Assembly: GCA_963846585.1 (NCBI GenBank)
Contig: CAWJWO010000002.1
Span: 199,592 to 263,591, forward strand
Direction: 5' to 3'
Source of the DNA: an uncultured Bacteroidota bacterium
GTDB lineage: Bacteria > Bacteroidota > Bacteroidia > Bacteroidales > JAAUTT01
DNA: 64,000 bases
The notes beneath the pieces are model-generated. The model made no database searches, had not been told where the DNA came from, and was given only the letters and a program-made list of their open reading frames with translations. Below are positions 9,089 to 34,140 of this stretch, one piece after another; the first letter of the stretch is position 1; each line of letters starts with the position of its first letter. A program made the translations under genes and the position numbers.

Positions 9089-12000
9089 ATGAATTTACAA
9101 TTTGATGTTTTTAAGAGATATCCCTCAAACTGGGTATATTCGTTAATATATTTGTGTTTCTTTTTGTCCGGTTTTACATCACTGATATTTGAAGTTCTAT
9201 GGAGCCGGCAGTTTGTCACAGTATTTGGAAATAGTTCTTATGCCATAAGCATTGTATTATGTGCATATATGGCAGGGATTGGTATGGGGGGGTTATATGG
9301 TGGAAAATTGGCCGACCGGACTAAAAACCATGCAGTGGTATTTGGTTCTGTACAAGTATTGATAGCTCTCTGGGCATTTTTAATTCCAATGATTCTTGAC
9401 TGGTTAAAATCAATTGTCCCCACATTATCGATTCTATCGCCCGAGTCTCTCCTGATAAGCACTTTCGCGAGATTCGGTTTATCGATTGCAATTTTAGGCA
9501 TTCCATGTTTTCTAATGGGAACTACCCTGCCTGTTTTAGTAAAAATGGTTACCGATTCAGTATCAAAAATTGGTAAGCATATAGGTATTTTATATAGTAT
9601 CAATACTTTTGGAGCAGCTATGGGTTGCCTTGCTGCAGGGTTCTGGATGATTGAAACCCTCGGCTTGCACAATACTAACCTGACAGCAATAATCATTAAC
9701 ATGATAATTGCAATCCTGATTTTTTCAATTTCAAAGAAAATTGCAAGCTTAAAAATTGATGAACAATTTATTAAGGAGACCCCAATTGCAGAAATATCGC
9801 ATGATAATGAATATTTCGCGCCATCAAAGCTTCTTTTGCTGATAGCCTTCTTTAACGGTTTTGTTGGTTTGGCCTGCGAAGTTATTTGGATTAGATATAT
9901 AGATTTTGTTGACAATGTAGCATATGTTTTCCCTACTATATTATTTATTTTTTTGCTTGGAACCGGTTTAGGAGGATTAATATTTGGATTATGGTCAGAT
10001 AAAATCCGTAAGATTGTCAAGGCCTTGGGACTCGTAGAAGTACTAATTGCTATTATTGTGCCGTTTACATTTATTACCACGGCCCTGATATTTTCGAAAG
10101 GACCACCAAGGCCAATGGAATTGTTAGGATTAACCATATATACTGTTTTTATACCAACTGTTTTAATGGGTATTGCATTCCCAATGTTATGCACTGCCTA
10201 TGTTAGGAATTTAAAAGTATTAGGTAGCCGCGTAGGATTGTTATTTTCTATAAATACTTTAGGCACGGTAATAGGTTCTCTTTTGCCAATGTTCGTGCTT
10301 ATCCCTTTGTTTGGAATCCAATTAAGCCTGTTGCTGATATCAATAATATATGGGATATTGGGGTTATCACTGTTATTTTTAAAGAATATTAAAAGTAAAC
10401 CGCTAGCTGTTAAAACAGGTGTAATGTATGCCTTAATATTACTTGCAATATTCATTGTAATACCATCCGACTTATGCAAGCGTTTTTTTCTGGCAACAAG
10501 TATTGAATTATCCAAACACAATGAAATACTTTTTTATAAAGAAGGGCGTACAGGCACTTCTATTGTGGTTCATGACAAGATTAATAACTGTAAATCGGTC
10601 TATATTAACGGTGTATCTGAAGTACCGGTAATGTATGGACATAATATATGTTTTAAAATGCTTGGCGATTTGGCGCCTCTCATGCACCCAAACCCCGACA
10701 GTATTTTAATGGTATGTTTTGGAGGAGGCATAGCCGCGGGAGCTACAGCCAGTATCCCTGAAGTAAAATCCTTAACAGTGGTTGATTTGGAAAGCAGTAT
10801 AATAGAATCGGCAAAGTTATTGACAGCTGATAATAATGGCTTGCTTAATAACCCCAAAGTTCATATTGCAATTGACGATGGACGTAATTATTTGATGATG
10901 TCACACCGCGACTGGCCCATAATTATCACTGATGCGACCCACCCAAAATCGAGCGACAGCTGGGTTTTATATACACGTGATTTTTATAAACTTGTGAATG
11001 AACATTTAACTAAGAATGGCATTTTTGTGGAATGGGTACCTTTCCAAAATATGCGTATGGAAGAGTTCAAAATTATTCTCCGCACTTTTCAATCGGTATT
11101 TCCACATTCCAGTTTATGGATTACAATAGGCACTGATGAGCAAGGCAGGTTGGTTGCTTACTCACTGGTTATCGGAACCATACAACCACTTATGATAGAT
11201 TTGGCACAGATAAGTGAAAAGTTAAAATCAGAATCGTTGCGAAACGATCTGAGGCCATATGGGCTTGATACACCGACAAGTATGCTAAGTGCATTTATTT
11301 GTTCAGAAAAGAACCTTCGTATTTGGGTTGGGAATGGATTAATTAATACAGACAACTTGCCCTATACCCAGTATGACAATCCATATTCTAAAAATCGCTT
11401 ACTCAGTGTTACAGAGTTTATAGAACCTATGGAGAGCATTTGGCCTTATATCAGTAAATCAAGTAAAACAAAAGATTCTATAACACTAAAAGACGATTTG
11501 GCGTTGAACTCAAAAATAAACAGGTGGACGATGTTAGGCTTTGTTAAAGAAGCCTTTTCATTAAGAAAAAATGATGCTCATTACAAAAAGATGCTTCAAC
11601 TGTATGATGACGGTTCAACTTATATTCAAAAGATGTCTCAGGTATATTGGAATAATCCGATTGATTTGGTTTATATTATTGAAAAGACAAATGGCAATTC
11701 AAAAAACTATGAAATAATAGAAAAAATATATAAGCGCATACTTACCCTGGATCCGGAAAATGCATCAGCACTGAATTATATGGGGGTAAAAATGCTAAAT
11801 GAAGGAAGGTTAAAAGAAGCAGAAGATATTCTGCAAACAGCAGTTAAAAATTCACATGGATACGCCGGAGCGTTTTATAACCTTGGACTTGTAATGGATA
11901 GAACTAACCGGCATGATGAAGCAATCAGATTGTGGGAAAAGGCAGCAAAAGATCCGCGATTTGAGGATGCTCCTATTACTTTAGGCATCTGTTCAGCAAA

Positions 12001-12211
12001 AAAAGGGGATATAGATGAAGCTATTAAATGGTTTCGGAGGTCTGTAGAAATAGACCCAGTATCTGTTGAGTCACGGATTTATTTATCCAAGGCTTTGATT
12101 CAAAAAGGGATTATTCCGGAAGCGTTAAAGAATATTAATTTTGTTTTTAGACTTGATCCCGGAAATACTTTTGCTCAACAATTAACTGACGAAATAAAAA
12201 ATAAAAAATGA
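9089..12211 (+). CDS. Fused polytopic membrane domain, spermidine synthase-like (class I SAM-fold) domain and C-terminal TPR repeats.
   Basis: About 12 or more TM helices. VCFGGGIAAGA, DDGRNYL and IITDATHP motifs of the spermidine synthase fold. TPR-like C-terminus. Paralogue of 25030-28011. Confidence 0.7.
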   Translation: MNLQFDVFKRYPSNWVYSLIYLCFFLSGFTSLIFEVLWSRQFVTVFGNSSYAISIVLCAYMAGIGMGGLYGGKLADRTKNHAVVFGSVQVLIALWAFLIPMILDWLKSIVPTLSILSPESLLISTFARFGLSIAILGIPCFLMGTTLPVLVKMVTDSVSKIGKHIGILYSINTFGAAMGCLAAGFWMIETLGLHNTNLTAIIINMIIAILIFSISKKIASLKIDEQFIKETPIAEISHDNEYFAPSKLLLLIAFFNGFVGLACEVIWIRYIDFVDNVAYVFPTILFIFLLGTGLGGLIFGLWSDKIRKIVKALGLVEVLIAIIVPFTFITTALIFSKGPPRPMELLGLTIYTVFIPTVLMGIAFPMLCTAYVRNLKVLGSRVGLLFSINTLGTVIGSLLPMFVLIPLFGIQLSLLLISIIYGILGLSLLFLKNIKSKPLAVKTGVMYALILLAIFIVIPSDLCKRFFLATSIELSKHNEILFYKEGRTGTSIVVHDKINNCKSVYINGVSEVPVMYGHNICFKMLGDLAPLMHPNPDSILMVCFGGGIAAGATASIPEVKSLTVVDLESSIIESAKLLTADNNGLLNNPKVHIAIDDGRNYLMMSHRDWPIIITDATHPKSSDSWVLYTRDFYKLVNEHLTKNGIFVEWVPFQNMRMEEFKIILRTFQSVFPHSSLWITIGTDEQGRLVAYSLVIGTIQPLMIDLAQISEKLKSESLRNDLRPYGLDTPTSMLSAFICSEKNLRIWVGNGLINTDNLPYTQYDNPYSKNRLLSVTEFIEPMESIWPYISKSSKTKDSITLKDDLALNSKINRWTMLGFVKEAFSLRKNDAHYKKMLQLYDDGSTYIQKMSQVYWNNPIDLVYIIEKTNGNSKNYEIIEKIYKRILTLDPENASALNYMGVKMLNEGRLKEAEDILQTAVKNSHGYAGAFYNLGLVMDRTNRHDEAIRLWEKAAKDPRFEDAPITLGICSAKKGDIDEAIKWFRRSVEIDPVSVESRIYLSKALIQKGIIPEALKNINFVFRLDPGNTFAQQLTDEIKNKK

Positions 12212-12237
12212 TAATCGGATTTTATAATTAAGATATC

Positions 12238-14670
12238 ATGATCAATATTAAATCTATTTTAAATAAAAGTAAAGATTTAGTTATATTGATAATATTAGGG
12301 TTATTAATTTTATGTGCAATTTTCCCCAGGTTCGATTTAACTTATACCCATGGTATTGACGGATCTCTTTCGTGGGTTTTTAACCATATATATAGCAGCG
12401 GTTTTCAAATTGGCAAAAATGTAATATTCCCTCATGGGCCCCTGGCATTTTTTATGTATCCAATGCAGGAAAATTTATTGTTGGCACTATTTGTTACAAC
12501 TGTTCTTCAATTGTTACTGGTTATTAATATCTTTTATGTATTAAATGGGTTTAACCCCGGTGAACGGTGGATAATTACTACATTGGTTTCAATAATTTTG
12601 CTGAACCTGTTAAGTTTTAATTTACTTATTTTAGCCAATGTCATTTTATTATTTCTTTTATTCAACGACGACTCAAAGAAAATACATTATAAGTACCTGG
12701 CATTTTTCCTAACTGTTTTTGCATTTTATGTAAAGGCTTATGTTGCAGTAGTGTCAGGAACGATAATATTTTCTTTCCTCGTAATTTCTTTTATTGCTCA
12801 ACGCAGGATTTATAAAACCCTCCTTGATTGTTCTATTTTATTGGTATTACTCTTAATTTTTTGGGTCGCCATATATGGATCATTTACAGGTATAATTCAA
12901 TACTTTATTGGTATGTTCAATTTGACCATGTCCAATTCAGCAGCGGTTTCCTTATATCCTGATAATTATTGGATTTGCTTGTCAATCTTTCTTGTAATTA
13001 CTTTTCTGATATCCTTTCTTCAAAAATCGCCGAAAGGTTATTATTTCGGTTCTTTACTTACATTAAGCATTTTTGCCGGATGGAAACATGGTATGTCACG
13101 TGAAGATATTCATCATGCCATTGAGTTTATGGTTTATATTATCATAATTTTCTTTCTCTTTATTATTTATGTCAGGAAAAACGTCAAATACAATATTATT
13201 TTTATTTTCATCGCGGTGCTGTTATTTGGTGTTAACCTCAGGAATGTTGTTAGTTTTCAAAATTATAAAATAGAGATAATCAGCGTTAACAACCTAATGG
13301 ATTTTATCAGCAATTTTTCAAAAATCAAAGAAGATGCGAATAAAGAAATTGAGGAAAATATAAATTTTAATAAAATGCCCGATGATATTATAAGCAAAAT
13401 TGGAAAGGCTAAATTAGATATTTATCCATGGGACTATTCCATTATACCTGCAAATAAATTAAACTGGCAACCAAGGCCTCAGATTCAAAGCCATTCAAGT
13501 TTTACGCCCTGGCTTGATAAAAAAAATGCAGATCACTTTAATTCAAAATCAGCGCCTGAATTTTTAATCTGGCATTTATATACAAGCAGTCAAACCGGAA
13601 TTCAAAAAACTTTTGAAAGCATTGACGGCAGGTATCTTTTAAATGACGAACCACAAACAATTATTCAAATATTGCGTAATTATGAATTATACTATAAAAA
13701 CAGCGATTTCCTTGTATATAAAAAGAGAAATATTCCTTTGCCGGTTATACAGAAGGTTTCATTGCCAGAGCATATCACCTGGGATCAATGGATCATTGTC
13801 CCTGATTCAAACAATGACCTGATAAGGATTAAAGTAAAAATAAAAGATTCTTTTTTAGGGTATTTGAAAGACTTTTTTTATAAAGGGAATTATTATTATA
13901 TATATTATAAACTATCAAATGGTTTTATTTATAAAAACCGGGTTGCATCAAAAATAGCAACTGAAGGTATGTGGATTGATCCTTATATAACCTTGCCATC
14001 CAATAATTTTATTGAGCCTAAAGTAAAAGAAATCTTATTTAAATGTTCAAATTCGCTTCTCTCCGATGATGATATAACAATTTCATGGGAAAATATTTCA
14101 TTTGGACCAGATACCAATGTTGGGAGAAACAATTATCCAAATGCATTTTTTGGCAAAAACCTGCAACCAGCCAATAATTTGTTAAAACAAACAACCAATA
14201 ATTTTGAGTTCATGAACGAAGAATGGACAAATATAGTGCCTGAAAATATGGTCACAAATGGCTACACTGGTATATATTCATGTACATTACAAATCAATTC
14301 ATATTCAGCGGCATTTGTATTAAGCCTTGATTCGTTTCAAAATAAAGAATTATTGATTGCAACAAATTGCTGGATAAAATCAGGAACAAATGCAGACGTC
14401 TTAATTGTAATTTCGGTAGAAAATAATTCCAAAATGCAGGTAAAGAATGCATCAAACATTAAGCCACAAATAATAAATAGTAAGGAATGGAACAATGTAT
14501 CCCGTTTTCAGGAATACAAAAGCGAGAAAAAAGGGGATGTATTAAAAATATTCTTGGTTAATATAGGTCAACAACCTTTATTATATGATGATTTTACAGT
14601 AAGAATTGAACAAAGAAACCCTGTTAATCCAGGTACATTTTACAAACTTCAAAGTGAAGGAACAAAATAA
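12238..14670 (+). CDS. Large polytopic membrane protein of unknown function (N-terminal ~340-aa TM bundle plus a soluble C-terminal half).
   Basis: ORF track and hydrophobicity pattern. No family motif recognised. Confidence 0.5.
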   Translation: MINIKSILNKSKDLVILIILGLLILCAIFPRFDLTYTHGIDGSLSWVFNHIYSSGFQIGKNVIFPHGPLAFFMYPMQENLLLALFVTTVLQLLLVINIFYVLNGFNPGERWIITTLVSIILLNLLSFNLLILANVILLFLLFNDDSKKIHYKYLAFFLTVFAFYVKAYVAVVSGTIIFSFLVISFIAQRRIYKTLLDCSILLVLLLIFWVAIYGSFTGIIQYFIGMFNLTMSNSAAVSLYPDNYWICLSIFLVITFLISFLQKSPKGYYFGSLLTLSIFAGWKHGMSREDIHHAIEFMVYIIIIFFLFIIYVRKNVKYNIIFIFIAVLLFGVNLRNVVSFQNYKIEIISVNNLMDFISNFSKIKEDANKEIEENINFNKMPDDIISKIGKAKLDIYPWDYSIIPANKLNWQPRPQIQSHSSFTPWLDKKNADHFNSKSAPEFLIWHLYTSSQTGIQKTFESIDGRYLLNDEPQTIIQILRNYELYYKNSDFLVYKKRNIPLPVIQKVSLPEHITWDQWIIVPDSNNDLIRIKVKIKDSFLGYLKDFFYKGNYYYIYYKLSNGFIYKNRVASKIATEGMWIDPYITLPSNNFIEPKVKEILFKCSNSLLSDDDITISWENISFGPDTNVGRNNYPNAFFGKNLQPANNLLKQTTNNFEFMNEEWTNIVPENMVTNGYTGIYSCTLQINSYSAAFVLSLDSFQNKELLIATNCWIKSGTNADVLIVISVENNSKMQVKNASNIKPQIINSKEWNNVSRFQEYKSEKKGDVLKIFLVNIGQQPLLYDDFTVRIEQRNPVNPGTFYKLQSEGTK

Positions 14671-14713
14671 TAATAGATGAATTTAATAATGGAAATAATT
14701 AAAATTTAGCAAG

Positions 14714-16681
14714 TTGGAAGTTTTATCAACAATATATAAAAATAAATTTTTCAAACCTGTTATACTAACAGTTTTTTGTTTTGTTTTTTATATTAATACA
14801 ATACCAAACTTTTATGCCTATGATGATGGTATGGTAATAATTGAAAATCAATTTACAAAAAGCGGTATTGCCGGAATACCAGATATTTTTAAGCATGACT
14901 ATTTTTATGGCTGTGTTGGGAATGATAATGCTAATCTTGTTTCAATCGGCAGGTATAGGCCTTTGTCATTGGTAACATTTGCAATCGAGTTTCAATTATT
15001 TGGAGCAAACCCGCATATCAGTCATTTTATTAATATTATGCTTTTAGCTTTAGCCTCTTTAATTTTATATTTACTTCTCTCTAAAATATTCAGTTCTTAT
15101 TTTAATGAAAACAATTTCTTTGATTTGCCTTTCGTCACAGTACTTTTATTCATAGCCCACCCTGTTCATACTGAAGTAGTGGCCAATATAAAAAGCAGGG
15201 ATGAAATTATGGCTATGATAGGTTCCCTGACAACTGTATTTTTTATTTTAAAATATATCGATACTAACCATTTTAAGTATCTGGTAATTAGTTTTTTCTT
15301 TTTCTTGTTGGCCTTGCTCTCAAAGGAAAATGCCATTACTTTTTTAGCAATCATCCCTTTAACAATTTATATTTATAAAAAAGGTAACAGGGTTAACTAT
15401 TTAATGTGTTTAATACCCGTTTGTCTGGCAACAATTTTTTTCCTAATAATCAGGATATTGGCTATAGGTAAATTTAGCCCTCCCCCGAATGAGATTTTAA
15501 ACAATCCTTATATTTACGCTACAATAAATGAAAAATCCGCTACTATTTTTTATGTCTTAGGGTATTATATTAAATTACTTTTCTGGCCCAATCCACTAAC
15601 TTTTGATTACTTTCCATACCATATTAAGTTGGTAAACTGGAACAATATTTTTGCTTTATTATCATTATTGTTTTATGTGGTGATCATAGCGTACGCGGTA
15701 TTGACAATTAGAAAAAAAACAGTTATTTCCTTTGGTATATTATTTTATATAATAACACTTTCAGTGGTATCTAACATATTTATCCCTGCCAGTTCATTTA
15801 TGGGAGAAAGGTTTTTATTTATGCCTTCTATAGGGTTTTTAATTATAATAGCGTGGCTGTTAACAGTAAAAATTCCTAAGATTGTTAAATCTTTTAATTT
15901 AAAAATACCTCTTTTGATAGTAATATTTACACTAAGTTTTTTTAAAACATATAGCCGTAATAAAGTATGGAACAATAATTTTACTTTGTTTACAACTGAT
16001 GTAAAAACGTCATCTAATAGCATTAAAGGCAATATGATTGCAGGAAGATTATATCTTGACATGGCAACCGAGACTGCTGACGATTTATTAAAGAAACAAT
16101 ATTTAGCAAACGCGTTAAAATATTCAAAAAAAGATGTCTCAATTTGCCCAAACCATATCGATGCAGTTACTCTTTTAGCAGATGCTTATACAGCGAATAA
16201 TATGCCGGATTCGGCAATATTCTGTTATCAGAAAGCAATTTATTTAATTCCTAAAAAAGCAGACTATATTTCCATGAAAGTTGAAGAAATAATGGATAAA
16301 ATAAGCAATCCGGATTTCAAAATTGAAAACTATCTTTATTTTATTAAATCATCACCTGATAATTTTATTTTTAATTATCAACTCGCTTATTTATTTGCCA
16401 GATATAAGAAAGATTTTATAAAGTCCGGCTTCTATCTTCAAAAATCAGTTGAAATCATCCCCGATAATTACATGGCAAATATGGCATTAGGAGTAAACTA
16501 CAGGTTACTTGGCGATTATAATAAATCATCTTTTTATCTTGAGAAAGCTTTAGAAATTAATCCCAACTTCTTACCTATTTGCGAAAACTTATTAATTACA
16601 TACAAAAAATCAGGAAATATTAAAAAAGAAAAAGAAGTATTAAAAAAGATAAAAGAATTGGAAAATGGAAAAAATAATTAA
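14714..16681 (+). CDS. GT-C-fold membrane glycosyltransferase-like protein with C-terminal TPR repeats (TMTC/DUF1736-like).
   Basis: GRYRPLSLVTFAIE, HPVHTEVVANIKSRDE and LLSKENAITF motifs, many TM helices, TPR tail. Paralogue of 29510-31474 and 31512-33134. Confidence 0.6.
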   Translation: MEVLSTIYKNKFFKPVILTVFCFVFYINTIPNFYAYDDGMVIIENQFTKSGIAGIPDIFKHDYFYGCVGNDNANLVSIGRYRPLSLVTFAIEFQLFGANPHISHFINIMLLALASLILYLLLSKIFSSYFNENNFFDLPFVTVLLFIAHPVHTEVVANIKSRDEIMAMIGSLTTVFFILKYIDTNHFKYLVISFFFFLLALLSKENAITFLAIIPLTIYIYKKGNRVNYLMCLIPVCLATIFFLIIRILAIGKFSPPPNEILNNPYIYATINEKSATIFYVLGYYIKLLFWPNPLTFDYFPYHIKLVNWNNIFALLSLLFYVVIIAYAVLTIRKKTVISFGILFYIITLSVVSNIFIPASSFMGERFLFMPSIGFLIIIAWLLTVKIPKIVKSFNLKIPLLIVIFTLSFFKTYSRNKVWNNNFTLFTTDVKTSSNSIKGNMIAGRLYLDMATETADDLLKKQYLANALKYSKKDVSICPNHIDAVTLLADAYTANNMPDSAIFCYQKAIYLIPKKADYISMKVEEIMDKISNPDFKIENYLYFIKSSPDNFIFNYQLAYLFARYKKDFIKSGFYLQKSVEIIPDNYMANMALGVNYRLLGDYNKSSFYLEKALEINPNFLPICENLLITYKKSGNIKKEKEVLKKIKELENGKNN

Positions 16682-17384: not shown

Positions 17385-17408
17385 AACCACTATTAAAGCA
17401 CTTGAAAA

Positions 17409-20061: not shown

Positions 20062-20149
20062 TCACAATTACAATTATTTGTGATATTAAAAAACAACTTT
20101 TTGTTGATATATATATATAATATTCAAAATTACATTATTTTAAGCAAAT

Positions 20150-25029: not shown

Positions 25030-28011
25030 TTAATTTGATTTCTCCTTTTTTATAGATTCTAACAGCTGTTTTGCCATTTGCAAATCTGGTCTTAACAAAA
25101 GCGCTTTATCCAGATATTTTTCTGCTTCAGTGTATTTTTTTTCCTTATAGAATAATATTCCCAGACTAAAGGCTCCATGCACATCCTCAGGGAACCCTGT
25201 CGTCATGGCAGTGTAAACTTCCCTGGCCTTTTCAAGGTTTCCCATTTTAAAATAAACCATCCCTAAAACATCCCATGCATGGATGTCTTTCCTATTAAGT
25301 TTAATGCCATTTTCACACCAAGTGAGTGCAATCTCAAATTGAGAACTGTTCATATAAAATTCTGCCATGGATGTAGAATTAATTGATGACTTTGGGTTTA
25401 TCAAAAATGCTTTTTTATAAGCCCTTTCAGCACGAAAAAACATATTTTTTTTCTCATAAAGTTTTCCGTAATAAGTATATAATTCTGACTGATTAATGAT
25501 GTTTGAAGAAATCAACGTCTGATAATTATAAATTTTTGGCAATACTGCAGTATCCGCATCCTGAATAGCATTATAAATTGTGCTTATTTGCTCCCTAATA
25601 TCAGAAAGGCTATAGAAAAGCCCGCGCGGGGCATTAAATTCAACATAAGGATAATTATCAGTATTTAATGGCGCATTTCCGCAAAAACGCAATAAAGCAT
25701 CGCGATCCAGAATGGCATTACTTATAAACGACACGGGATCCTCAATTCCGGTTGAAGCAAGATCCTGTTGAATTGCCTGGATGCGATATAATTTTTGTAT
25801 CTTGTCCATATCAATTTTAATCGAATCTCGACTGCCTATTAACAGCACGTCCCCAGGAATGGTTGATTGTTTTTTTTCAGGTAAATTGGAAAGAGGAACC
25901 ACCCATAGCATGGCATCCGGGAATACCGAACAAAAAGTCCGCATTTGTGATCTCATTACTTCAAGTGGCATATCATACATATGAAACCACTGACAAAAAA
26001 TACCTTTTCTGTTTAATCGCTCTATTCCGGATTTATAAAACTCTTGTGTAAACAAATTTGAAACTCCTGTAATCCATGGGTTTGAGGGTTCCGAAATAAT
26101 AACATCATACATTTTAGAGGTTGTAAGCAACACATTACGCCCATCTCTGAAAATAATATGAAATTTAGGATCGTTGTAAACTCTATTGTTTATTTCGCTA
26201 AACAATTTTTTGGATCCGTATACTGCCGGCTCAATTTCAATTGTTTCAATAGATTTCAATGGGTATAAGCTTACAGTTCCGCTGGTGCATCCACTTCCCC
26301 ACCCAATTATCAATGCATTGCTCGTATTAGGATTAAGAGCCAATGGCACATGTGCCAGCATTTTTTGAGTATTCAGATCCCCAATGCTGGCATCTGTTTT
26401 TCCATTAACGGAAAGAAATAATCCGAATCCTTCAGAGTTTGTAACTGCAACTACGGATTCAATTCCCTCTTTATAATATAATATCTTACGGTTGCTTTTT
26501 AATGATTTTAAAAGTCCAAATGCGTTTCTTTTTTCGTCTTTGTTTTGTTGTAACCCATATTTATAAATGCCAGAGGTTACAACCAATGGTTCCCATGGAT
26601 TCCATATCGTCCCAAGTATTATGGCCACTATAATTACCATAGTCGAGAAACTTACCTGAGTTTGAATATTCCATTTCTTATAAATACCAAGTACAATGAT
26701 GCTTAAAATAAAAGGCAAGGCAGCCGCGAAAATATATCCTTTTTGAAGACCAAAGACAGGAATAATAAGAAATCCCGTAAGCAATGCACCAATTAATGTT
26801 CCAAACGTATTCCAGGCATATAGTTTTGATGTGATCAACCGTGATTCATTTGGTCCAACAGAATCCTGACTAACTAACCTTAAGATAAACGGGAAAATAA
26901 AACCAAAAAGTGAGGTCAATACAATCATGACTAGAAAACACAACAGAAACCCAGCGAATTGATATACTTCAAATGTTAATGGTAAGTAATCCATCAGGCT
27001 ATAATAAAAAAGTGGTAGCCAGCCAATCGCTGCAGCACTGATAAGGATACCTGTGCCCAAAAGCAATAACAGCCAAATGAGAATCCTGAAAGGGTTCTTT
27101 ATTTTTCCCCAATATTTTTCATATAACCAGGTTCCGGCAACTAAACCCAGCAGAAATGAAAACAGCATTATGTTAAACGAATAAATTGAAGAGCCGATTA
27201 CAAAAGCAAACGATCTGCTCCAAAGTATTTCCAGGCAAAATGATGTAGCACCGACAATTGATGCCACAAGCATAAATATGACCGGAACTTTTGTGCTTTT
27301 TATTTTTAATTGCCCGGGATCTTCTGCCATTTGAATATTGGTTGACGGCAATTTATTGAAGAATATCATCAGGGTACATATTCCGGCAATAATAAAATTT
27401 AATGCAATTGCAATAATATATGCTTTTGATAACCCTAGTAAAGGAAAAAGTATATAAGTGGTTATAAGCACACCGGCAGCGCCTCCCAAAGTATTCATGT
27501 AATATAATCTTGAAAGAACTTTATGGTGTGATACATGTCGCGAAAGAATTTGTACCAGCAACGGAACTGTTGCCCCCATGCAAAGGGTTGGTATCAGTAT
27601 AACAAGGCCGGCAAAAATAATCCTTAACGGGACTTCGAAGGCATTCGGTAAAGAAACGTTACGTAAAAAATTGCCCCAGAATTCAGGCAATATTTTTAAA
27701 AGAACAAATGAAATGATTGCAGAAGCGGCAATTAGAAATTCAACAAAGGCGTATGTTTTTAACGGGTTAGATATTTTAATACGGCCAGCAAAATAACTTC
27801 CTAACGCTATTCCTCCCATATAAGTAGCAAGGATTACCGTAACAGCGTGCGTAGTATTTCCGAAAATTAAGCCAAAAGAACGCATCCAGAGAGATTCATA
27901 AATAAGCCCCGCTGCTCCGGAAAAAAATGTCAGGAAAGGCAATACTTTTTCAAAGCCAATAAAAGTGGCTTTAGTTGATTTAAAATAAGAAAAGAATCTT
28001 TGGACTTTCAT
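25030..28011 (-). CDS. Fused membrane domain, spermidine synthase-like domain and TPR (paralogue of 9089-12211).
   Basis: Polytopic N-terminus. IIGWGSGCTSG, RDGRNVL and IISEPSNPW motifs. TPR tail. Confidence 0.7.
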   Translation of the reverse strand: MKVQRFFSYFKSTKATFIGFEKVLPFLTFFSGAAGLIYESLWMRSFGLIFGNTTHAVTVILATYMGGIALGSYFAGRIKISNPLKTYAFVEFLIAASAIISFVLLKILPEFWGNFLRNVSLPNAFEVPLRIIFAGLVILIPTLCMGATVPLLVQILSRHVSHHKVLSRLYYMNTLGGAAGVLITTYILFPLLGLSKAYIIAIALNFIIAGICTLMIFFNKLPSTNIQMAEDPGQLKIKSTKVPVIFMLVASIVGATSFCLEILWSRSFAFVIGSSIYSFNIMLFSFLLGLVAGTWLYEKYWGKIKNPFRILIWLLLLLGTGILISAAAIGWLPLFYYSLMDYLPLTFEVYQFAGFLLCFLVMIVLTSLFGFIFPFILRLVSQDSVGPNESRLITSKLYAWNTFGTLIGALLTGFLIIPVFGLQKGYIFAAALPFILSIIVLGIYKKWNIQTQVSFSTMVIIVAIILGTIWNPWEPLVVTSGIYKYGLQQNKDEKRNAFGLLKSLKSNRKILYYKEGIESVVAVTNSEGFGLFLSVNGKTDASIGDLNTQKMLAHVPLALNPNTSNALIIGWGSGCTSGTVSLYPLKSIETIEIEPAVYGSKKLFSEINNRVYNDPKFHIIFRDGRNVLLTTSKMYDVIISEPSNPWITGVSNLFTQEFYKSGIERLNRKGIFCQWFHMYDMPLEVMRSQMRTFCSVFPDAMLWVVPLSNLPEKKQSTIPGDVLLIGSRDSIKIDMDKIQKLYRIQAIQQDLASTGIEDPVSFISNAILDRDALLRFCGNAPLNTDNYPYVEFNAPRGLFYSLSDIREQISTIYNAIQDADTAVLPKIYNYQTLISSNIINQSELYTYYGKLYEKKNMFFRAERAYKKAFLINPKSSINSTSMAEFYMNSSQFEIALTWCENGIKLNRKDIHAWDVLGMVYFKMGNLEKAREVYTAMTTGFPEDVHGAFSLGILFYKEKKYTEAEKYLDKALLLRPDLQMAKQLLESIKKEKSN

Positions 28012-28097: not shown

Positions 28098-29513
28098 TTG
28101 AAATCTGTTAAAATGGCTAAAGTCCTTCTTGTTAATTCGTGTAGCCCTGGAATCATGGGTAAAAGAAAAGATATTGGCGGCAAGCATCATCCTCTTGGGT
28201 TATTGTACATAGCATCGGTACTCCTGGAAAATAAACATGAAGTTCAAATTTGTGATGAATTGGTAGGACAAATTCCCGAAGAGTATTTACTTTCATTCAA
28301 ACCTGAATATTTAGGCGTAAGCGTAAGAACTCCTGCATTTAACAGGGCTATTCAAATTGCCAAAGCTGCCAAATCATTTGGAACAAAAGTTATATTTGGC
28401 GGCCCTCACGTTTCAGCACTTCCGGAAGAATCTATTATGGCTTCTGACTTTGTTGACGGAGTAATTGTCAATGAAGGCGAATATACATTTCTTGAATTAT
28501 TAAATAGTTCAGATTGGTCAAATGTCAGAGGATTGGTATATAAAAAAGATACAATGGTATTGAAAAACCCTCCTCAAGAAAAAATCATCGATTTAAATTT
28601 ATTACCATTCCCTGCAAGGCAACTCCTTGATGAAAAATTATATTACGGTACCCCGGAATATGGATTTTTAGTTCCACCACGTCAAAAATTTTGGACTATT
28701 TGCAGTTCAAGAGGTTGCCCTTATAATTGCACATATTGCAGTTCTGCTAATATTTTTGGAAAGAAATTCAGGTTCCGGAGTGCCTTAAACATTTTCAATG
28801 AAATAATGGAAGGATATAAACTTGGGGTAACAAATTTTGTATTTATTGACGATTCATTCGGCTTAAACAGTGAAATTACATCTGAACTATGTAACCTGAT
28901 AATTGAAAATAATATTATTATAAGGTGGTGCTGCCAAACAAGAGTAACTATACCAATTGAAACTATCAAATTAATGAAAACAGCCGGTTGTTCCCTTATT
29001 TCATTTGGAATTGAATCCGGTTCAGAAAAAGTATTGGAAAATATAAAAAAAGGATTAACTAAAGATCTAATGAGAAAAGGGATTGAAAATGCAAAAAAAA
29101 CAGGCCTATTGGTCAAGGCATACTTTATTATTGGTTTACCAGGTGAAGGCAAAGAAGAATTTAAAGAATCCCTTATTTTTGCAAAATCTCTTGATATAGA
29201 TTATTTGTGGTTATCAATCATAAAGATACTACCGGGATCAGAATTATGGAATACTAACATGGATAATATTGATTATAAAAATATTAATTGGGAAGATTTA
29301 AGTTATTTTAGTATAAATAATAATAAATTACTTCAAAAAAGGTATAATTTATTTTTAATATTGTTCTTTTTACAACCAAAGTTTATAAAAAATTTAATTA
29401 AAAGGATGTCCTATAGTGAAATGATGTATTTTTTAGAACTCATTAACGTATTTATACGTGAAAAATTTTACAATTATTATTCTGTTAGAAATAGAAAACA
29501 TCAAATTATATGA
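28098..29513 (+). CDS. B12-binding-domain radical SAM enzyme (class B).
   Basis: N-terminal B12-binding-like segment (HHPLGLLYIASVL). CPYNCTYC CxxxCxxC cluster. The likely true start is ATG at 28113 (MAKVLLVNS). The stop overlaps the next gene (ATGA at 29510-29513). Confidence 0.75.
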   Translation: MKSVKMAKVLLVNSCSPGIMGKRKDIGGKHHPLGLLYIASVLLENKHEVQICDELVGQIPEEYLLSFKPEYLGVSVRTPAFNRAIQIAKAAKSFGTKVIFGGPHVSALPEESIMASDFVDGVIVNEGEYTFLELLNSSDWSNVRGLVYKKDTMVLKNPPQEKIIDLNLLPFPARQLLDEKLYYGTPEYGFLVPPRQKFWTICSSRGCPYNCTYCSSANIFGKKFRFRSALNIFNEIMEGYKLGVTNFVFIDDSFGLNSEITSELCNLIIENNIIIRWCCQTRVTIPIETIKLMKTAGCSLISFGIESGSEKVLENIKKGLTKDLMRKGIENAKKTGLLVKAYFIIGLPGEGKEEFKESLIFAKSLDIDYLWLSIIKILPGSELWNTNMDNIDYKNINWEDLSYFSINNNKLLQKRYNLFLILFFLQPKFIKNLIKRMSYSEMMYFLELINVFIREKFYNYYSVRNRKHQII

Positions 29514-31474
29514 CTGAATCACTAAATATTAATAAAAGCAAAATATTAAAGTTTATTTTTATTTCAGTGATTTGTTTTATTTTTTATGGTAATTCAATTC
29601 CAAATAAATATGCTTTTGATGATTTTATTGTTATCACACATAATCAGTTTACTCAAAATGGTATAGCTGGCATTCCTGATATTTTAAAGTTTGATTCATG
29701 GGTTGGTTGTTTTGGTAAAAATCCGAAATTTGTTGAAGGTGGTCGATACAGACCATTATCATTGGTTACCTTTGCTCTTGAGAACCAATTTTTCGGGAAA
29801 AATCCTTATTTTAGCCATTTGATTAATGTTTTATTGTATATATTAACGGCCTTGTTATTATATACTTTACTTTTAAAGTTGTTTGGCAAGTATTTAAACA
29901 GTAATGAATTTTTTGATTTTCCTTTTATTGCCGTATTACTATTTATTATACATCCTATCCATACTGAGGTAATTGACAATATTAAATGCAGGGATGAAAT
30001 CATGACTTTGGCCGGTTCCCTCGCTGCTACAATTTTTATTTTGAAATACGTCGATTTTCATAAAATAATTTACCTTTTATATAGTTTCATCTGTTTTTTC
30101 CTTGCACTCCTATCAAAAGAAAATGCGATTACTTTTTTAGCTGTTATTCCATTATCAATATATTTTTATAGAAAAACTAACATCTTAACTTATATATATT
30201 CTTTAATTCCTTTATTTATTGCCACCATTTTATTCCTAATAATAAGAAAGTTAGCATTGGGAGAAACCGCTGCCCCACATCAGGATTTTATAAGCAACGC
30301 ACTCATAGATGCTTCCTTTACTCAAAAATACGCTACTATTTTCTATGCCCTCGGGTTATATATTAAATTACTTGTATTCCCTCACCCGCTTACGTTTGAT
30401 TATTATCCGAACCATATCCCAATTGTAAATTGGACCAATATATTTGCTATCCTTTCATTTTGCTTCTATTGTTTTATTTTGATATACGCTTTGTTAACCA
30501 TTGCCAAAAGGTCAGTCATTTCATACGGGATTTTATTTTATTTACTTCCCCTTTCTATAGTGTCTAACCTATTTTTCCCGATTGGAGGAGCAGTTATTAC
30601 TGAACGGTTTATTTTTATTTCTTCCATAGGGTTTTCAATTATAATTGCCTGGTTTTTATCAACCAAAGTGTTTGTTCTACTAAAATCAAGTTATTTAAAG
30701 ACATCCCTGATAGCTGTAGTAATGCTATTTTGCTTTATTACAACTTACAGCCGGAATAAGGTTTGGAAAGACGACTTTTCTTTGTTTACCAATGATGTTA
30801 AAACCTCTTTTAATAGCCGGAAAAGCAATTTAGGAGTAAGTGTAGTTTTATTGGAAAAGGCTAACCAAATAAATGATAGTATTTTGGCCCGTAAATACAG
30901 GAAAGATGCATTATTCTACGCTAACAGGTTGGTTAAAATATTTCCCAATTATGTTGATGCGGTTTACCGTTTAGGAAATGCATATTCGGAAAATAATATG
31001 CTGGATAGTGCCTTGGCTTGTTATAAAAGAACCATTTATTTATCCCCTGATTTAAATAATACAATATGTGATCAAATACCTTCAGTACTAAATAAGTCAA
31101 ATGACGTTGATTTCAAAATGAAATATTATCTTGAATTTATAAAATATTCCCCTGATAATTTTTCTATTAATTTTGAAATTGGATATTTATCAGGCAGGTA
31201 TAAGAACGATATTCAAAATTCTATATATTACCTTACCAGGGCTGTTGAAATTCAACCTGGTAATTTTGACGCGAATAATAATTTAGGCCTTGCATACAGG
31301 TTAGCCGGCAAATACGATAAATCCTCAATTTATCTTAAAAATGCAGTAAAAATAAACCCTTATAGTTTATCGGCATGGCAAAGTCTATATATTACTTATA
31401 AATTAGCCGGCGAGAAAGAAAATGAAACGGAAGTTTTGAAAAAAATTGATGATCTCCAAAACACCGGTTATTAG
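29510..31474 (+). CDS. GT-C/TPR membrane glycosyltransferase-like protein (TMTC/DUF1736-like paralogue).
   Basis: GRYRPLSLVTFALE, HPIHTEVIDNIKCRDE and LLSKENAITF. TPR tail. Confidence 0.6.
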   Translation: MTESLNINKSKILKFIFISVICFIFYGNSIPNKYAFDDFIVITHNQFTQNGIAGIPDILKFDSWVGCFGKNPKFVEGGRYRPLSLVTFALENQFFGKNPYFSHLINVLLYILTALLLYTLLLKLFGKYLNSNEFFDFPFIAVLLFIIHPIHTEVIDNIKCRDEIMTLAGSLAATIFILKYVDFHKIIYLLYSFICFFLALLSKENAITFLAVIPLSIYFYRKTNILTYIYSLIPLFIATILFLIIRKLALGETAAPHQDFISNALIDASFTQKYATIFYALGLYIKLLVFPHPLTFDYYPNHIPIVNWTNIFAILSFCFYCFILIYALLTIAKRSVISYGILFYLLPLSIVSNLFFPIGGAVITERFIFISSIGFSIIIAWFLSTKVFVLLKSSYLKTSLIAVVMLFCFITTYSRNKVWKDDFSLFTNDVKTSFNSRKSNLGVSVVLLEKANQINDSILARKYRKDALFYANRLVKIFPNYVDAVYRLGNAYSENNMLDSALACYKRTIYLSPDLNNTICDQIPSVLNKSNDVDFKMKYYLEFIKYSPDNFSINFEIGYLSGRYKNDIQNSIYYLTRAVEIQPGNFDANNNLGLAYRLAGKYDKSSIYLKNAVKINPYSLSAWQSLYITYKLAGEKENETEVLKKIDDLQNTGY

Positions 31475-31511
31475 AAATAATAAGAAAGTATTGGGCCTAA
31501 TAAGTTAAAAT

Positions 31512-33134
31512 ATGTTGGAGGCATTTTCAGTTTTATATAATAACAAGATGTTTAAACCTGTTATTTTAGGTATATTTTGCATTATTTTTTATGGAAATAC
31601 CATTCAGAATAATTACGCGCTTGACGACGGCCTGGTTATTAATGATAACCGGTTTACTACAAATGGCATTTCAGGTATACCTGATATATTTAAATATAAT
31701 TCTTTTACAGGTAGTCTCGGGGAAAATGCTACTCTGGTAACAGGGGGAAGGTACAGACCTTTATCCCTAACTACTTTCGCGATTGAATATCAAATATTCG
31801 GAGCTAACCCGCGGTTGAGCCATTACTTTAATGTATTACTTTTCCTTATCACTGCATTATTATTATATAAGTTACTTATAAAGTTATTTTATCGATATAG
31901 TTCAAAGGAAATCTTATCAGATTTACCCTTCATTGCCACTCTGATTTTTATAATTCACCCTATACATACCGAAGTTGTTGCCAACATTAAAGGCAGGGAT
32001 GAAATAATGGCTCTTGGAGGTTCTCTCGCTACAATAATATTTATAATTAAATATCTCGATACAACTAAAATAATATATCTGATATCAAGCATTGTCCTAT
32101 TTTTAACTGCCTTATTGTCAAAAGAAAATGCTGTTACTTTTATAGCTATAATACCTCTGTGTATTTACTATTATAAAAATGAAAAATGGATTAAATATTT
32201 ATATTGTTTATTATCATTGTTCATAGCCCTTTTTATTTTTCTAGTCATGAGAAAACTGGCTCTGGGAGATATAAGCAAACCTCCCGGTGAATTATTAAAT
32301 AACCCGTATATTTATGCCTCAGTTCCGGAGAAATTTGCCACTATTTTTTATACCCTCGGTATTTATATAAAACTTCTTTTTTGGCCAGACCCTTTAACTT
32401 ACGATTACTATCCGTACCATATTAAGTTAATAAATTGGGATAATAGTGTCGCTTTATTATCATTAATTGTTTATATCTCGCTATTTGTCTATGCCATTGT
32501 GAAATTAAAATATAAAACAACAATTGCATTTGGAGTGCTATTTTTTATGATTACCCTCTCAATTGTTTCAAACATATTTTTTAATATTGGTACATTTATG
32601 AGTGAACGCTTTATATTTATTCCTTCTATTGGTTTTGTAATAATTATAGCATGGCTTTTCACGGTAAAATTGCCGGAATATATAAAATGGGTTAATTTTA
32701 GGATTGTGTTTTTAACGATAATAATGACATTGTGTTTTATAAAAACATACAGTCGCGATAAAGTCTGGAAAAATAATTTTACGTTATTTACTACAGATGT
32801 TAAAACCTCTTTTGACAGTGCTAAAAGCAATATGGCAGCCGGTAATGTTTGGTTATATTTAGCATATCAAACCAATGATAGTTTATTAAGAAAAAAATAT
32901 TTTAATAATGCCTTGTTTTATTCCAGAAGGGCTCAATCTATATATCCGAATCATGTTGACATTGCAATTCTTTTGGCAAATGCCTATTCTGAAAATAATA
33001 TATTAGACAGTGCAATAATTTATTATAAAAAGGCTATAGATTTAATGCCCGAAAAAACCGACTTTATTTTCGAAAAAATAAAACAAACTTTGAATAAAAC
33101 AAATGATATAAATTTTAAATTTAACCAAAAGTAA
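31512..33134 (+). CDS. GT-C membrane glycosyltransferase-like paralogue, lacking most of the C-terminal TPR region present in its 654-655-aa paralogues.
   Basis: Same motifs (GRYRPLSLTTFAIE, HPIHTEVVANIKGRDE). Ends at ...KTNDINFKFNQK, where the paralogues continue for ~110 aa. Confidence 0.6.
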   Translation: MLEAFSVLYNNKMFKPVILGIFCIIFYGNTIQNNYALDDGLVINDNRFTTNGISGIPDIFKYNSFTGSLGENATLVTGGRYRPLSLTTFAIEYQIFGANPRLSHYFNVLLFLITALLLYKLLIKLFYRYSSKEILSDLPFIATLIFIIHPIHTEVVANIKGRDEIMALGGSLATIIFIIKYLDTTKIIYLISSIVLFLTALLSKENAVTFIAIIPLCIYYYKNEKWIKYLYCLLSLFIALFIFLVMRKLALGDISKPPGELLNNPYIYASVPEKFATIFYTLGIYIKLLFWPDPLTYDYYPYHIKLINWDNSVALLSLIVYISLFVYAIVKLKYKTTIAFGVLFFMITLSIVSNIFFNIGTFMSERFIFIPSIGFVIIIAWLFTVKLPEYIKWVNFRIVFLTIIMTLCFIKTYSRDKVWKNNFTLFTTDVKTSFDSAKSNMAAGNVWLYLAYQTNDSLLRKKYFNNALFYSRRAQSIYPNHVDIAILLANAYSENNILDSAIIYYKKAIDLMPEKTDFIFEKIKQTLNKTNDINFKFNQK

Positions 33135-33144
33135 AACAACTCAA

Positions 33145-34140
33145 ATGAAAGTATTATTTATTGGCGGAACAGGTAATATAAGTGAGCCTGTAAGCAAATT
33201 GGCCATAAAAAAAGGCATTGACCTTTACCATCTGAACAGGGGTAACAGGCCGGTAGTAAAAGGAGTAAATAATTTAATTGCCGACGTTAAGAATATTGCC
33301 CTGATAAAGAAAGTACTATCAGGTCAAAAATGGGATGCAGTTGTTAACTGGGTTGCTTTTTCCCCGGAGGATATTTTACGTGATATCGAACTTTTTGAAG
33401 GTAATACGGAACAGTATATATTTATAAGTTCTGCCTCAGTATATCAAAAACCCCCGGTAAATTATATTATTACAGAATCAACGCCTCTTAAAAATCCATT
33501 CTGGGAATATTCAAGAAATAAAATTGCCTGCGAAGATATGCTGATGACAGTATACAGAGAACGAGGCTTCCCGGTTACAATTGTTCGGCCATCCCACACT
33601 TATTCTACAGTAATTCCGGTAACCCTGGCTGGTTGGGATGAATATACCGTCGTAGATCGTATAAAGAAAGGACTACAAATTGTAGTTCAGGGTGATGGTA
33701 CATCCTTATGGACATTAACTCATGCCGACGATTTTGCTAAAGGTTTTGCAGGTCTTTTAGGTAATCAACATGCAATTGGTGAGTCATTTCATATTACTTC
33801 AGATGAAGTACTTTCATGGAATCAGATATATCAGGCTCTTGCACATGCAGCTGGTTATGAGGCAAAAATAGTTCATATATCTTCAAGATTCATTTCTGAT
33901 TATGCTGACAGCCATAATTATCCTTCGGTATTTGGTACTTTACTGGGAGATAAATCACATAGCGCAATTTTTGATAATTCAAAAATTAAACGGTTCGTGC
34001 CGGATTTTGTTGCTACTATTCCATTTTCTACCGGCATTAAACAAACTCTAAATTGGTTAGAATCAGACCCATTGAGAATGATAGTGAAGGAAGAAACGAA
34101 TCGTTTTTTAGATGAACTTATTAATAATTATGGCAAATAA
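33145..34140 (+). CDS. NAD-dependent epimerase/dehydratase (extended SDR).
   Basis: MKVLFIGGTGNIS Rossmann motif; length and pattern of extended SDRs. Confidence 0.7.
   Translation: MKVLFIGGTGNISEPVSKLAIKKGIDLYHLNRGNRPVVKGVNNLIADVKNIALIKKVLSGQKWDAVVNWVAFSPEDILRDIELFEGNTEQYIFISSASVYQKPPVNYIITESTPLKNPFWEYSRNKIACEDMLMTVYRERGFPVTIVRPSHTYSTVIPVTLAGWDEYTVVDRIKKGLQIVVQGDGTSLWTLTHADDFAKGFAGLLGNQHAIGESFHITSDEVLSWNQIYQALAHAAGYEAKIVHISSRFISDYADSHNYPSVFGTLLGDKSHSAIFDNSKIKRFVPDFVATIPFSTGIKQTLNWLESDPLRMIVKEETNRFLDELINNYGK

Follow-up and report, generated by a model that had tools for sequence, protein, structure and literature searches.

Putative lipid-linked sugar donors for periplasmic GT-C enzymes: a candidate extracytoplasmic glycosylation locus in an uncultured Bacteroidota bacterium

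What would a bacterium do with five large membrane proteins ending in tetratricopeptide repeats (TPR), packed into 25 kb of DNA together with genes that recall lipid-linked sugar synthesis? The question is raised by positions 9089-34140 of a 64-kb stretch from an uncultured Bacteroidota bacterium (contig CAWJWO010000002.1; the whole stretch of 64,000 nucleotides (nt) is called the window, and all positions are given in its coordinates). An initial annotation, made from the letters alone, saw the entire block as a candidate factory for periplasmic protein or glycan glycosylation, built on paralogous glycosyltransferases of the GT-C type. The answer reached here is narrower. The locus would be a lineage-specific pile-up of genes for extracytoplasmic glycosylation, in which a core of five genes feeds a polyprenyl-phosphate sugar, epimerised on its lipid, to a periplasmic GT-C enzyme; we give this reading a probability of roughly 60%. 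The lipid donor, the chemistry and the transfer in the periplasm are proposed by analogy with the ArnC/ArnT, Gtr, DprE1/DprE2 and TfpW systems. The genes of this core are the following.

20150-21475, plus strand: DprE1-like oxidase dependent on flavin adenine dinucleotide (FAD) (NCBIfam DprE1 model, Pfam FAD_binding_4)
21610-22344, plus strand: short-chain dehydrogenase/reductase (SDR) in DprE2-like position (adh_short; DprE2 model)
22406-23140, plus strand: soluble GT2, putative polyprenyl-phosphate sugar synthase (Glycos_transf_2)
23160-25013, plus strand: GTC_C, diverged TMTC-like GT-C and TPR enzyme, 617 amino acids (aa) (hhalign, five TPR_1 repeats)
33145-34140, plus strand: NAD-dependent epimerase/dehydratase (Pfam Epimerase, 1.9e-19)

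Which of these genes travel together? Oxidase, SDR and GT2 make up what the initial annotation had called a lipid-sugar triad, and this triad proves to be a genuine conserved module adjoining GT-C-type proteins. A profile of the oxidase, run against metagenome contigs, gave 406 confirmed matches, the best 80 of which were fetched as loci (these, and loci around other genes, carry L-numbers below). The SDR comes immediately after the oxidase in 66 of these 80 loci and the GT2 is present in 53, most of the exceptions being contigs that end early. In loci with the gene order of the window the GT2 is by far the best conserved of the three, at 54-91% identity to its counterpart as against about 40% for the oxidase and about 30% for the SDR; where the GT2 is placed before the oxidase its identity is 43-51%. 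Among the 34 loci with enough flanking sequence to be evaluated, 18 have a protein of at least six transmembrane (TM) helices within 300 nt of the triad, and 24 have one within 3 kb. Some of these polytopic neighbours exceed the PMT_2 threshold (28.7 bits in L107, 29.2 bits in L159), others match nothing in Pfam. An NAD epimerase/dehydratase recurs near the triad (15 loci), as does a methyltransferase using S-adenosylmethionine (SAM) right after the GT2 (13 loci), together with Wzy_C, GT4, GT1, DegT aminotransferases and nucleotidyltransferases. Because of these recurrent polytopic and polysaccharide-gene neighbours, the triad appears, in general, to serve surface-glycan synthesis by providing an extracytoplasmic transferase with its lipid-linked sugar.

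In the lineage of the window the partner of the triad is GTC_C, a transferase that is genetically tied to it. Epimerase, oxidase, SDR, GT2 and GTC_C are contiguous in L172 and L088 (82-91% identity); in L173 (77%) the triad is flanked on either side by GTC_C-like genes, and fragments of insertion sequences (IS) have been inserted; and in L090 (53%) it is preceded by a GTC_C-like gene of 36% identity. An orthologue or paralogue of GTC_C, that is, flanks the triad where the DprE1-like protein is 53-82% identical (these four loci), and among the 80 loci the pairing of the triad with a TMTC-like/TPR enzyme is seen only in this lineage. The epimerase lies 11 kb from the triad in the window, yet its orthologue (86-88%) sits immediately before the oxidase gene in L172 and L088, so that it appears to belong functionally with the triad; it probably provides the GT2 with its nucleotide-sugar substrate. 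To judge from these comparisons, the stable core consists of epimerase, oxidase, SDR, GT2 and GTC_C, which stay together; conservation does not extend to the full 25-kb block, whose other genes are scattered in relatives. The idea that the genes would be co-conserved holds, then, for the core and fails for the block. The assignment of the GT2 as a lipid-loading enzyme is consistent with weak NCBIfam matches that include ArnC, AglJ, dolichyl-phosphate hexose transferase and PpgS, among other GT2 families, and with 25% identity to Escherichia coli ArnC (E 9e-15), whose TM helices are absent here.

Are the five GT-C/TPR enzymes a single paralogous set, as had been supposed? Their common architecture is borne out in each case, with a polytopic domain at the N-terminus and TPR repeats behind it. 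All have 9-14 hydrophobic segments in hydropathy plots, with a positive-inside bias of Lys and Arg that places the N-terminus in the cytoplasm. By their profiles they nevertheless form three groups, namely a TMTC-like trio, which is paralogous, the diverged TMTC-like GTC_C, and a PMT_2/ArnT-like enzyme. Besides GTC_C these are:

14714-16681, plus strand: GTC_A, TMTC-like GT-C and TPR enzyme, 655 aa (Pfam TMTC_DUF1736, weak PMT_2, TPR)
18097-20061, minus strand: GTC_B, PMT_2/ArnT-like GT-C and TPR enzyme, 654 aa (weak PMT_2 match, 7.6e-5)
29510-31474, plus strand: GTC_D, TMTC-like GT-C and TPR enzyme, 654 aa (DUF1736 at residues 268-323; modelled with AlphaFold2)
31512-33134, plus strand: GTC_E, TMTC-like GT-C with shortened TPR tail, 540 aa (DUF1736 match, one TPR match)

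The members of the trio (GTC_A, GTC_D and GTC_E) are mutually 53-58% identical over 527-646 aa (BLASTP E = 0), and the motifs that had been read by eye as shared (GRYRPLSL.TFA.E, HP.HTEV..NIK.RDEIM, LLSKENA.TF, KTYSRNKVW...DVKTS) are present in the alignment. The view that these are recent paralogues has to be abandoned, because of this modest identity and because relatives on other contigs are equally close: such homologues are 57-68% identical to the trio, as close as its members are to one another, and the nearest relative of GTC_A on another contig (68%) stands above its in-locus paralogues. In a neighbour-joining tree the three share a clade with a dozen further sequences, of which several come from the same samples. 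The trio is thus a lineage-specific expansion that is not recent. GTC_E, described as having lost its TPR tail, is truncated rather than tail-less, with about 100 aa of the TPR region kept, including one Pfam TPR match, and the last 115 aa or so absent. Since short forms of 489-528 aa adjoin long forms in related contigs, it is a stable short variant and not a fresh pseudogene.

That the polytopic domains are of the GT-C type, as first proposed, is upheld at the level of families. The TMTC_DUF1736 and PMT_2 scores of the trio itself are below the gathering threshold. GTC_D has 3,697 homologues, mostly in Bacteroidota, and in a family alignment of 59 members (39-83% identity) PMT_2 (PF13231) is matched by 34 (best 8e-9) and TMTC_DUF1736 (PF08409) by 30 (best 7.6e-10). 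GTC_C has TPR matches only in Pfam; compared with the profile of the trio's family, its N-terminal 440 residues give an hhalign probability of 99.4% (E 1.6e-21, 416 columns), which marks it as a diverged member of the same superfamily. GTC_B belongs to a family with 11,666 representatives at 50% clustering; 53 of 55 sampled relatives match PMT_2 (best 9.5e-20), 53 carry TPR, and D47 in the first external loop is invariant. It gave no signal with the TMTC-like family profile. Structure searches were less telling, as Foldseek of the full GT-C model against the PDB returned TPR matches, none bearing on the TM domain, and phmmer against PDB sequences returned TPR chains only; the family profiles gave no signal against E. 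coli ArnT, used as a single sequence, a template without a profile. Membership in PMT (GT39) was considered and dropped, neither PF02366 (PMT) nor a MIR domain being matched by these enzymes, for which PMT_2 is the only match of this kind. As family members, the GT-C/TPR proteins are commonplace and widely annotated. In one assembly of the same organism (L176, ena:ERZ25039473:contig_66195, 19009-20974) the GTC_B gene is split into open reading frames (ORFs) of 372 and 302 aa and an S41 peptidase gene is split too; these are probably assembly indels and not biology.

Would such enzymes be active, and on which side of the membrane? The AlphaFold2 model of GTC_D, built from the 59-sequence alignment (pLDDT 90.2, pTM 0.84), has 11 TM helices. 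Its first external loop is long and contains short helices; TM7 and TM8 are joined by another long loop (residues 251-310), which coincides with the DUF1736 match, the stretch 268-323 lying between model helices 225-250 and 311-333. After TM11 comes an all-helical TPR solenoid (437-651). Because the N-terminus is inside, from the Lys/Arg bias, and the number of TM helices is odd, the TPR domain of the trio is predicted to be periplasmic; human TMTCs have the same derived topology, with a non-cytoplasmic TPR. The acidic residues that the initial annotation proposed to locate in a model are present, D37-D38 standing immediately past TM1 in the first external loop. Seven ligand-binding motifs proposed for TMTC enzymes, M1-M7 (Eisenhaber et al., 2021), were set against the invariant columns of the 59-member family.

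M1: TMTC DD; here D37-D38, just after TM1, invariant in all 59; kept
M2: TMTC SHKSYRP; here GGRYRP; YRP core kept, mannose-contacting H-K-S replaced
M3: TMTC RxD; here R161-D162-E163; approximate
M4: TMTC KE(T/Q)xxT; here K203-E204-N205..T208; kept
M5: TMTC DW; here D297-Y298; kept as Asp-aromatic
M6: TMTC PxxP; no counterpart seen
M7: TMTC ERxxY; here E365-R366-F367; kept

The residues proposed for catalysis, metal binding and lipid-phosphate binding thus seem conserved in the trio's family, and GTC_A for one carries the DD, KENxxT, DY and ERF motifs. Mannose as the donor is doubtful, because the sugar-contact residues SHKSYRP of the TMTCs read GGRYRP in this family. GTC_C keeps WDD (the DD motif), RKD and DRY.

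The genes interspersed with these enzymes are as first described, and comprise fusions of an MFS (major facilitator superfamily) domain with a spermidine-synthase-like domain and TPR, a pair of FKBP lipoproteins, a radical SAM enzyme with a B12-binding domain, and a large polytopic protein.

9089-12211, plus strand: MFS/spermidine-synthase-like/TPR fusion 1, 1040 aa (NF037959; Pfam Spermine_synth, MFS_1, TPR)
12238-14670, plus strand: 810-aa polytopic protein with periplasmic domains resembling carbohydrate-binding modules (CBM) (AlphaFold2, Foldseek, hhalign)
16665-17384, plus strand: FKBP-type peptidyl-prolyl isomerase lipoprotein 1 (FKBP_N and FKBP_C; N-terminal hydrophobic segment, then a lipobox-like Cys)
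17409-18104, plus strand: FKBP-type peptidyl-prolyl isomerase lipoprotein 2 (FKBP_N and FKBP_C; lipobox-like Cys)
25030-28011, minus strand: MFS/spermidine-synthase-like/TPR fusion 2, 993 aa (Pfam Spermine_synth 4.6e-21, and TPR)
28098-29513, plus strand: B12-binding radical SAM enzyme (Pfam B12-binding and Radical_SAM)

The 810-aa protein had been called an orphan. It has in fact 291 homologues across Bacteroidota, all of about 790 aa and all unannotated; none of 47 sampled members matches Pfam. In its AlphaFold2 model (pLDDT 87.9) about 12 TM helices (residues 1-335) are followed by a periplasmic alpha/beta domain and two beta-sandwiches, which Foldseek matches to CBM22 and CBM16 modules. 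The first external loop of the family has an invariant Asp (D41) and an FPHGPL motif. No homology with the TMTC-like and PMT_2 families is detectable by hhalign (5% and 9% probability), and phmmer against PDB sequences found nothing. The protein is homologous to the polytopic gene product encoded directly before the triad in L109 (hhalign 99.8%, E 1.5e-27), and genes similar to that one precede the triad in L103 and L141. In 80 genomes with the 810-aa family, no GT-C/TPR, triad or MFS/spermidine-synthase gene was found within 10 kb. The architecture recalls the CBM-bearing GT-C enzymes Emb, AftD and GT136 and, with the gene neighbourhood, makes this family a candidate for a new family of (glycan) transferases.

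Fusion 1 scores 158 bits with NCBIfam NF037959 'fused MFS/spermidine synthase', whose cutoff is 40, and is 25% identical to fusion 2. We found no functional study of such fusions in the literature. The two FKBPs are 41% identical, and the pair also precedes the triad module in L172. The stop of the B12-radical SAM gene overlaps the start of GTC_D by 4 nt; its product is best matched by the HpnJ model, for which it scores 208 bits where the cutoff is 578. HpnJ acts on a lipid-linked sugar. Elsewhere, B12-radical SAM genes are seen near the oxidase and SDR genes in three loci (L146, L150, L163), and L169 has one at a distance of 3.5 kb from a TMTC-like gene.

How could these parts work together? 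The epimerase would prepare a nucleotide sugar, whose sugar the soluble GT2 would transfer to polyprenyl phosphate on the cytoplasmic side of the membrane. Oxidase and SDR, neither of which has a signal peptide, would then invert one hydroxyl via a keto intermediate in the cytoplasm while the sugar is still lipid-bound. In mycobacteria, DprE1/DprE2 invert a hydroxyl on a lipid-linked sugar via a keto intermediate in just this manner. A flippase would carry the donor across the membrane, and the GT-C enzyme would transfer the sugar in the periplasm using the DD motif of its external loop, its periplasmic TPR solenoid selecting the acceptor. The other four GT-C/TPR enzymes, with catalytic residues intact, would also be transferases, differing in the acceptors that they use and possibly in their donors; the 810-aa protein may represent a new family of transferases acting on glycans. 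Use of a donor linked to a lipid phosphate is suggested, for the GT-C enzymes, by the gene linkage of GTC_C to the GT2 and the oxidase/reductase pair. As to the acceptor of the TPR-bearing enzymes, we lean slightly towards protein rather than glycan, because proteins are the acceptors of those GT-C enzymes with TPRs whose function is known (TMTC, TfpW), and because the genes of the two FKBP chaperones are co-transcribed and keep their place next to the module. A bolder version of the scheme would have the triad stand for a widespread, undescribed route to a GT2-loaded, lipid-epimerised donor that has no nucleotide-sugar equivalent and that, in this Bacteroidota lineage, feeds a TMTC-type enzyme O-glycosylating periplasmic proteins picked by its TPR domain, with the 810-aa protein founding a GT-C-like family that uses the same donor on glycans; this we regard as doubtful.

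Which known system comes closest? With the eukaryotic protein O-mannosyltransferases TMTC1-4 the trio shares 11 TM helices, an N-terminus inside, the DUF1736 loop between TM7 and TM8 and a non-cytoplasmic C-terminal TPR, as well as the motifs M1 (DD), M4 (KExxxT), M5 (Asp-aromatic), M7 (ER) and the YRP core of M2. TMTC1-4 form family GT105 of the CAZy classification. The initial annotation's placement in the architecture class DUF1736 plus TPR, and in the GT-C superfamily, is supported by these likenesses. There are differences: the mannose-contacting S-H-K-S of M2 is G-G-R here, M6 is not seen, the lipid carrier would be a bacterial polyprenol and not dolichol, and one paralogue is linked to an oxidase/reductase donor pathway that has no counterpart for the TMTCs. 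TMTC-type enzymes matter in human disease, and their chemistry is largely deduced from modelling and genetics. The statement that bacterial counterparts are essentially uncharacterised overlooks TfpW of Pseudomonas aeruginosa, a GT-C enzyme of about 650 aa and 11 TM helices with a periplasmic DDX motif and a C-terminal TPR, which transfers D-arabinofuranose to pilin. Its lipid-linked donor is made with DprE1/DprE2 homologues, from phosphoribosyl pyrophosphate (PRPP) via a UbiA-type synthase and a phosphatase. TfpW is the closest characterised analogue, as compared by described architecture and not by sequence: the 11-TM GT-C topology, the DDX motif, the periplasmic TPR and the DprE1/DprE2-type donor pair are common to both. 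The partner here, however, is a GT2 instead of a PRPP-using UbiA-type synthase, and whereas tfpW adjoins pilA, none of the five enzymes here has a pilin-like product encoded next to it; membership in a TfpW-type pilin system is not supported. We found no functional study on bacterial TMTC homologues, nor on a Bacteroidota O-oligosaccharyltransferase with TPRs.

Fungal and actinobacterial PMT enzymes (GT39) O-glycosylate proteins from a polyprenyl-phosphate sugar. They share with our enzymes the GT-C type and an acidic pair in the first external loop, but TPRs here replace their MIR domain and there is no match to the PMT family. The mycobacterial DprE1/DprE2 and Emb/Aft set likewise has an FAD oxidase and an SDR side by side, adjoining GT-C users of the lipid-linked product. 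By contrast, the scores here are below equivalog level and there is no decaprenyl-phosphoribose synthase, because of which the substrate sugar of the triad is probably not ribofuranose. The general logic, a cytoplasmic polyprenyl-phosphate sugar synthase combined with an extracytoplasmic GT-C, is that of the three-component systems GtrA/GtrB/GtrV, ArnC/ArnEF/ArnT and PPPRS/MATE/GT136. In the last of these, a three-component periplasmic system, an auxiliary epimerase diversifies the lipid-linked sugar, and its discoverers stated that they knew of no further epimerases in side-chain glycosylation of this sort (Kelly et al., 2024). The present locus differs in that a GtrB/ArnC-type GT2 is combined with a DprE1/DprE2-type pair, and in that its GT-C has TPRs rather than a CBM or no extra domain. 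We found no description of this combination, although absence from the searched literature is no proof of novelty. New here are a donor module that joins a GT2 to a DprE-type pair, the linkage of this module to a TMTC-like enzyme, and the 810-aa family, which lacks any Pfam match.

To be sure, a number of observations weigh against the proposed scheme. The oxidase aligns with the DprE1 model end to end, at 210 bits where the equivalog cutoff is 500, and the SDR reaches 88 bits with the DprE2 model against a cutoff of 250; the two are homologues of DprE1 and DprE2, not equivalogs. In GTC_C, the transferase of the core, motif M4 reads SKGTAMT, with Gly in place of the metal-binding Glu, and no clear DW/DY motif is seen in the alignment. 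The locus has no flippase of the GtrA, SMR or MATE type; its only transporter-like candidates are the MFS domains of fusions 1 and 2, and casting them as donor flippase is speculative. In other genomes the trio and GTC_B are unlinked to the triad, TMTC-like homologues are mostly solitary (occasional contexts are an adjacent PEMT/ICMT-like gene and GT2, a nearby polyprenyl synthase and DXS, or tandem arrays), and the triad occurs in polysaccharide loci with TPR-less GT-C partners, which argues for glycan acceptors generally. Finally, the compact locus of L172 (ena:ERZ19989563:k141_5189523, 1-10051) lacks fusion 1, the 810-aa gene, GTC_A and GTC_B. Its order is ICMT-like gene (89%), GH134 remnant, a 29-aa remnant of the C-terminus of the 810-aa protein, FKBP, FKBP, epimerase, oxidase, SDR, GT2 and GTC_C, which points to accessory genes having been recently gained or lost at the site. 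Because L172 does without four genes, much of the clustering may be incidental. With the TMTC-like homologues solitary and the 810-aa family unlinked as well, the 25-kb factory does not stand as a unit.

How far can incidental clustering be taken? At the extreme, the site would be a recombination or duplication hotspot for independent membrane and TPR genes, and only the triad with GTC_C would be a functional unit. In addition to the four genes missing from L172 and the different place of the epimerase there, this would fit the IS fragments that interrupt the module in L173, the IS4-like transposase at 3534-4664 of the window, the isolation of the 810-aa family in the 80 genomes mentioned above, and the lack of any homologue of the MFS/spermidine-synthase/TPR fusions in the 160 other fetched loci (those of the triad and of the 810-aa family). 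It sits uneasily with the very tight packing of the locus, in which genes are 20-135 nt apart or overlap by 4, 8 or 17 nt and two divergent promoter regions measure about 87 nt, with the fact that all components are envelope- or glycan-related, and with the recurrence of a tandem long/short TMTC-like array (L086) and of an MFS/spermidine-synthase copy 8.7 kb from a TMTC-like gene (L085); on balance it is unlikely. Somewhat less so, and possible, is that the target is a surface polysaccharide such as a capsule, exopolysaccharide or O-antigen, or a different envelope glycan, and not a protein, the GT-C enzymes adding side-chain sugars after polymerisation as Gtr and GT136 do, with TPRs that serve as scaffolds or bind glycan in the manner of BcsC, PgaA or AlgK. 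The triad at 64% identity (L174, L089) indeed belongs to a Wza/Wzc/Wzx-type locus that also encodes aminotransferases, methyltransferases and acyltransferases; its recurrent neighbours are Wzy_C, GT4, GT1, DegT and NTP transferase genes; the 810-aa protein has CBM22/CBM16-like domains and distant homologues that abut the triad; and there is a precedent for GT-C enzymes with CBMs (Kelly et al., 2024). Yet Wzx, Wzy, Wza and an initiating transferase were not found in the 64-kb window, TMTC and TfpW with their TPRs act on proteins, and the two periplasmic FKBP chaperones are co-transcribed and kept beside the module in L172. Very improbable, by comparison, is that the module makes polyprenyl-phospho-D-arabinofuranose, as in mycobacteria and Pseudomonas pili, for GT-C/TPR enzymes that would be TfpW-type arabinofuranosyltransferases. 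The end-to-end alignment with DprE1 and the 11-TM, DDX and TPR architecture of TfpW speak for it, but the route from PRPP through ribofuranose to arabinofuranose, known in mycobacteria, Pseudomonas pili and a Citrobacter system, needs a PRPP-using UbiA-type phosphoribosyltransferase and a phosphatase, neither of which was found among the window ORFs of at least 150 aa run against Pfam (three ORFs of 150-346 aa outside the locus were unscanned). Moreover, the conserved partner is a Leloir-type GT2, a user of nucleotide sugars, the five enzymes have no pilin gene beside them, and the DprE1/DprE2 scores are far under their cutoffs. With no PRPP-dependent synthase among the ORFs scanned, the D-arabinofuranose pathway is rejected. 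In L174 and L089 the triad is followed, at about 12840-14477, by a gene for a 545-aa protein with 7 TM helices and no Pfam match, an unclassified polytopic partner.

Why does it matter whether a GT-C core is served by its own donor module? Bacterial relatives of the TMTCs without assigned function are numerous (the 3,697 TMTC-like homologues and 11,666 PMT_2 and TPR cluster representatives above), and one TMTC-like enzyme tied to a compact donor-synthesis operon would open the donor sugar and the transfer reaction to reconstitution. If the proposed scheme is true, a GtrB/ArnC-type GT2 with a DprE1/DprE2-type pair extends lipid-linked epimerisation beyond the pentofuranoses derived from PRPP. 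The Pfam-less 810-aa family with its CBM-like domains adds another candidate for a family of transferases. Should the clustering prove incidental, what is left is simply another group of annotated 'TPR proteins'.

What, finally, of the host and the setting of the locus? The window has a G+C content of about 31%, and homologues of its proteins come nearly all from metagenome-assembled genomes of Bacteroidota (Bacteroidales, Prolixibacteraceae, Lentimicrobiaceae, Saprospiraceae, Flavobacteriales). The species-level genome set searched holds no close representative, the top match to the 810-aa protein being 42% identical. The same locus, identically assembled, is present in at least three independent data sets, in one of them on a 423-kb contig, which rules out an assembly artefact or chimera. 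Every ORF named in the initial annotation is present at its coordinates. The genes fall into five apparent transcription units, listed here with two features of the left flank.

6806-8110, plus strand: flanking gene, ICMT/PEMT-like membrane methyltransferase with 8 TM helices (Pfam PEMT/ICMT, E about 2e-5)
9005-9037, plus strand: probable terminator, hairpin cagtccc...gggactg followed by ttttgttttt (sequence read directly)
9089-18104, plus strand: apparent transcription unit 1
18097-20061, minus strand: apparent transcription unit 2
20150-25013, plus strand: apparent transcription unit 3
25030-28011, minus strand: apparent transcription unit 4
28098-34140, plus strand: apparent transcription unit 5

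The hairpin and T-run at 9005-9037, after the GH134 gene, probably mark the left boundary of the first unit. This GH134 gene (8218-8976), just upstream of the locus, codes for a secreted protein of the beta-mannanase family with a CBM10 module. The ICMT/PEMT-like methyltransferase may be associated with the locus; its gene is at the same position in L172, 89% conserved. In L170, a PEMT/ICMT-like gene comes before a TMTC-like gene, which itself precedes a GT2. The wider region is flanked by the IS4-like DDE transposase (3534-4664) and by an ORF for a group II intron reverse transcriptase/maturase (60012-61409), with a tRNA-Ser at 62188-62276. Between the locus and the intron ORF, a type I restriction-modification system spans 48727-58220 (HsdM 48727-50250, HsdS 51794-53032, HsdR 55377-58220), and two Pfam-less ORFs, of 480 aa (50339-51781) and 777 aa (53022-55355), are interleaved in its operon.

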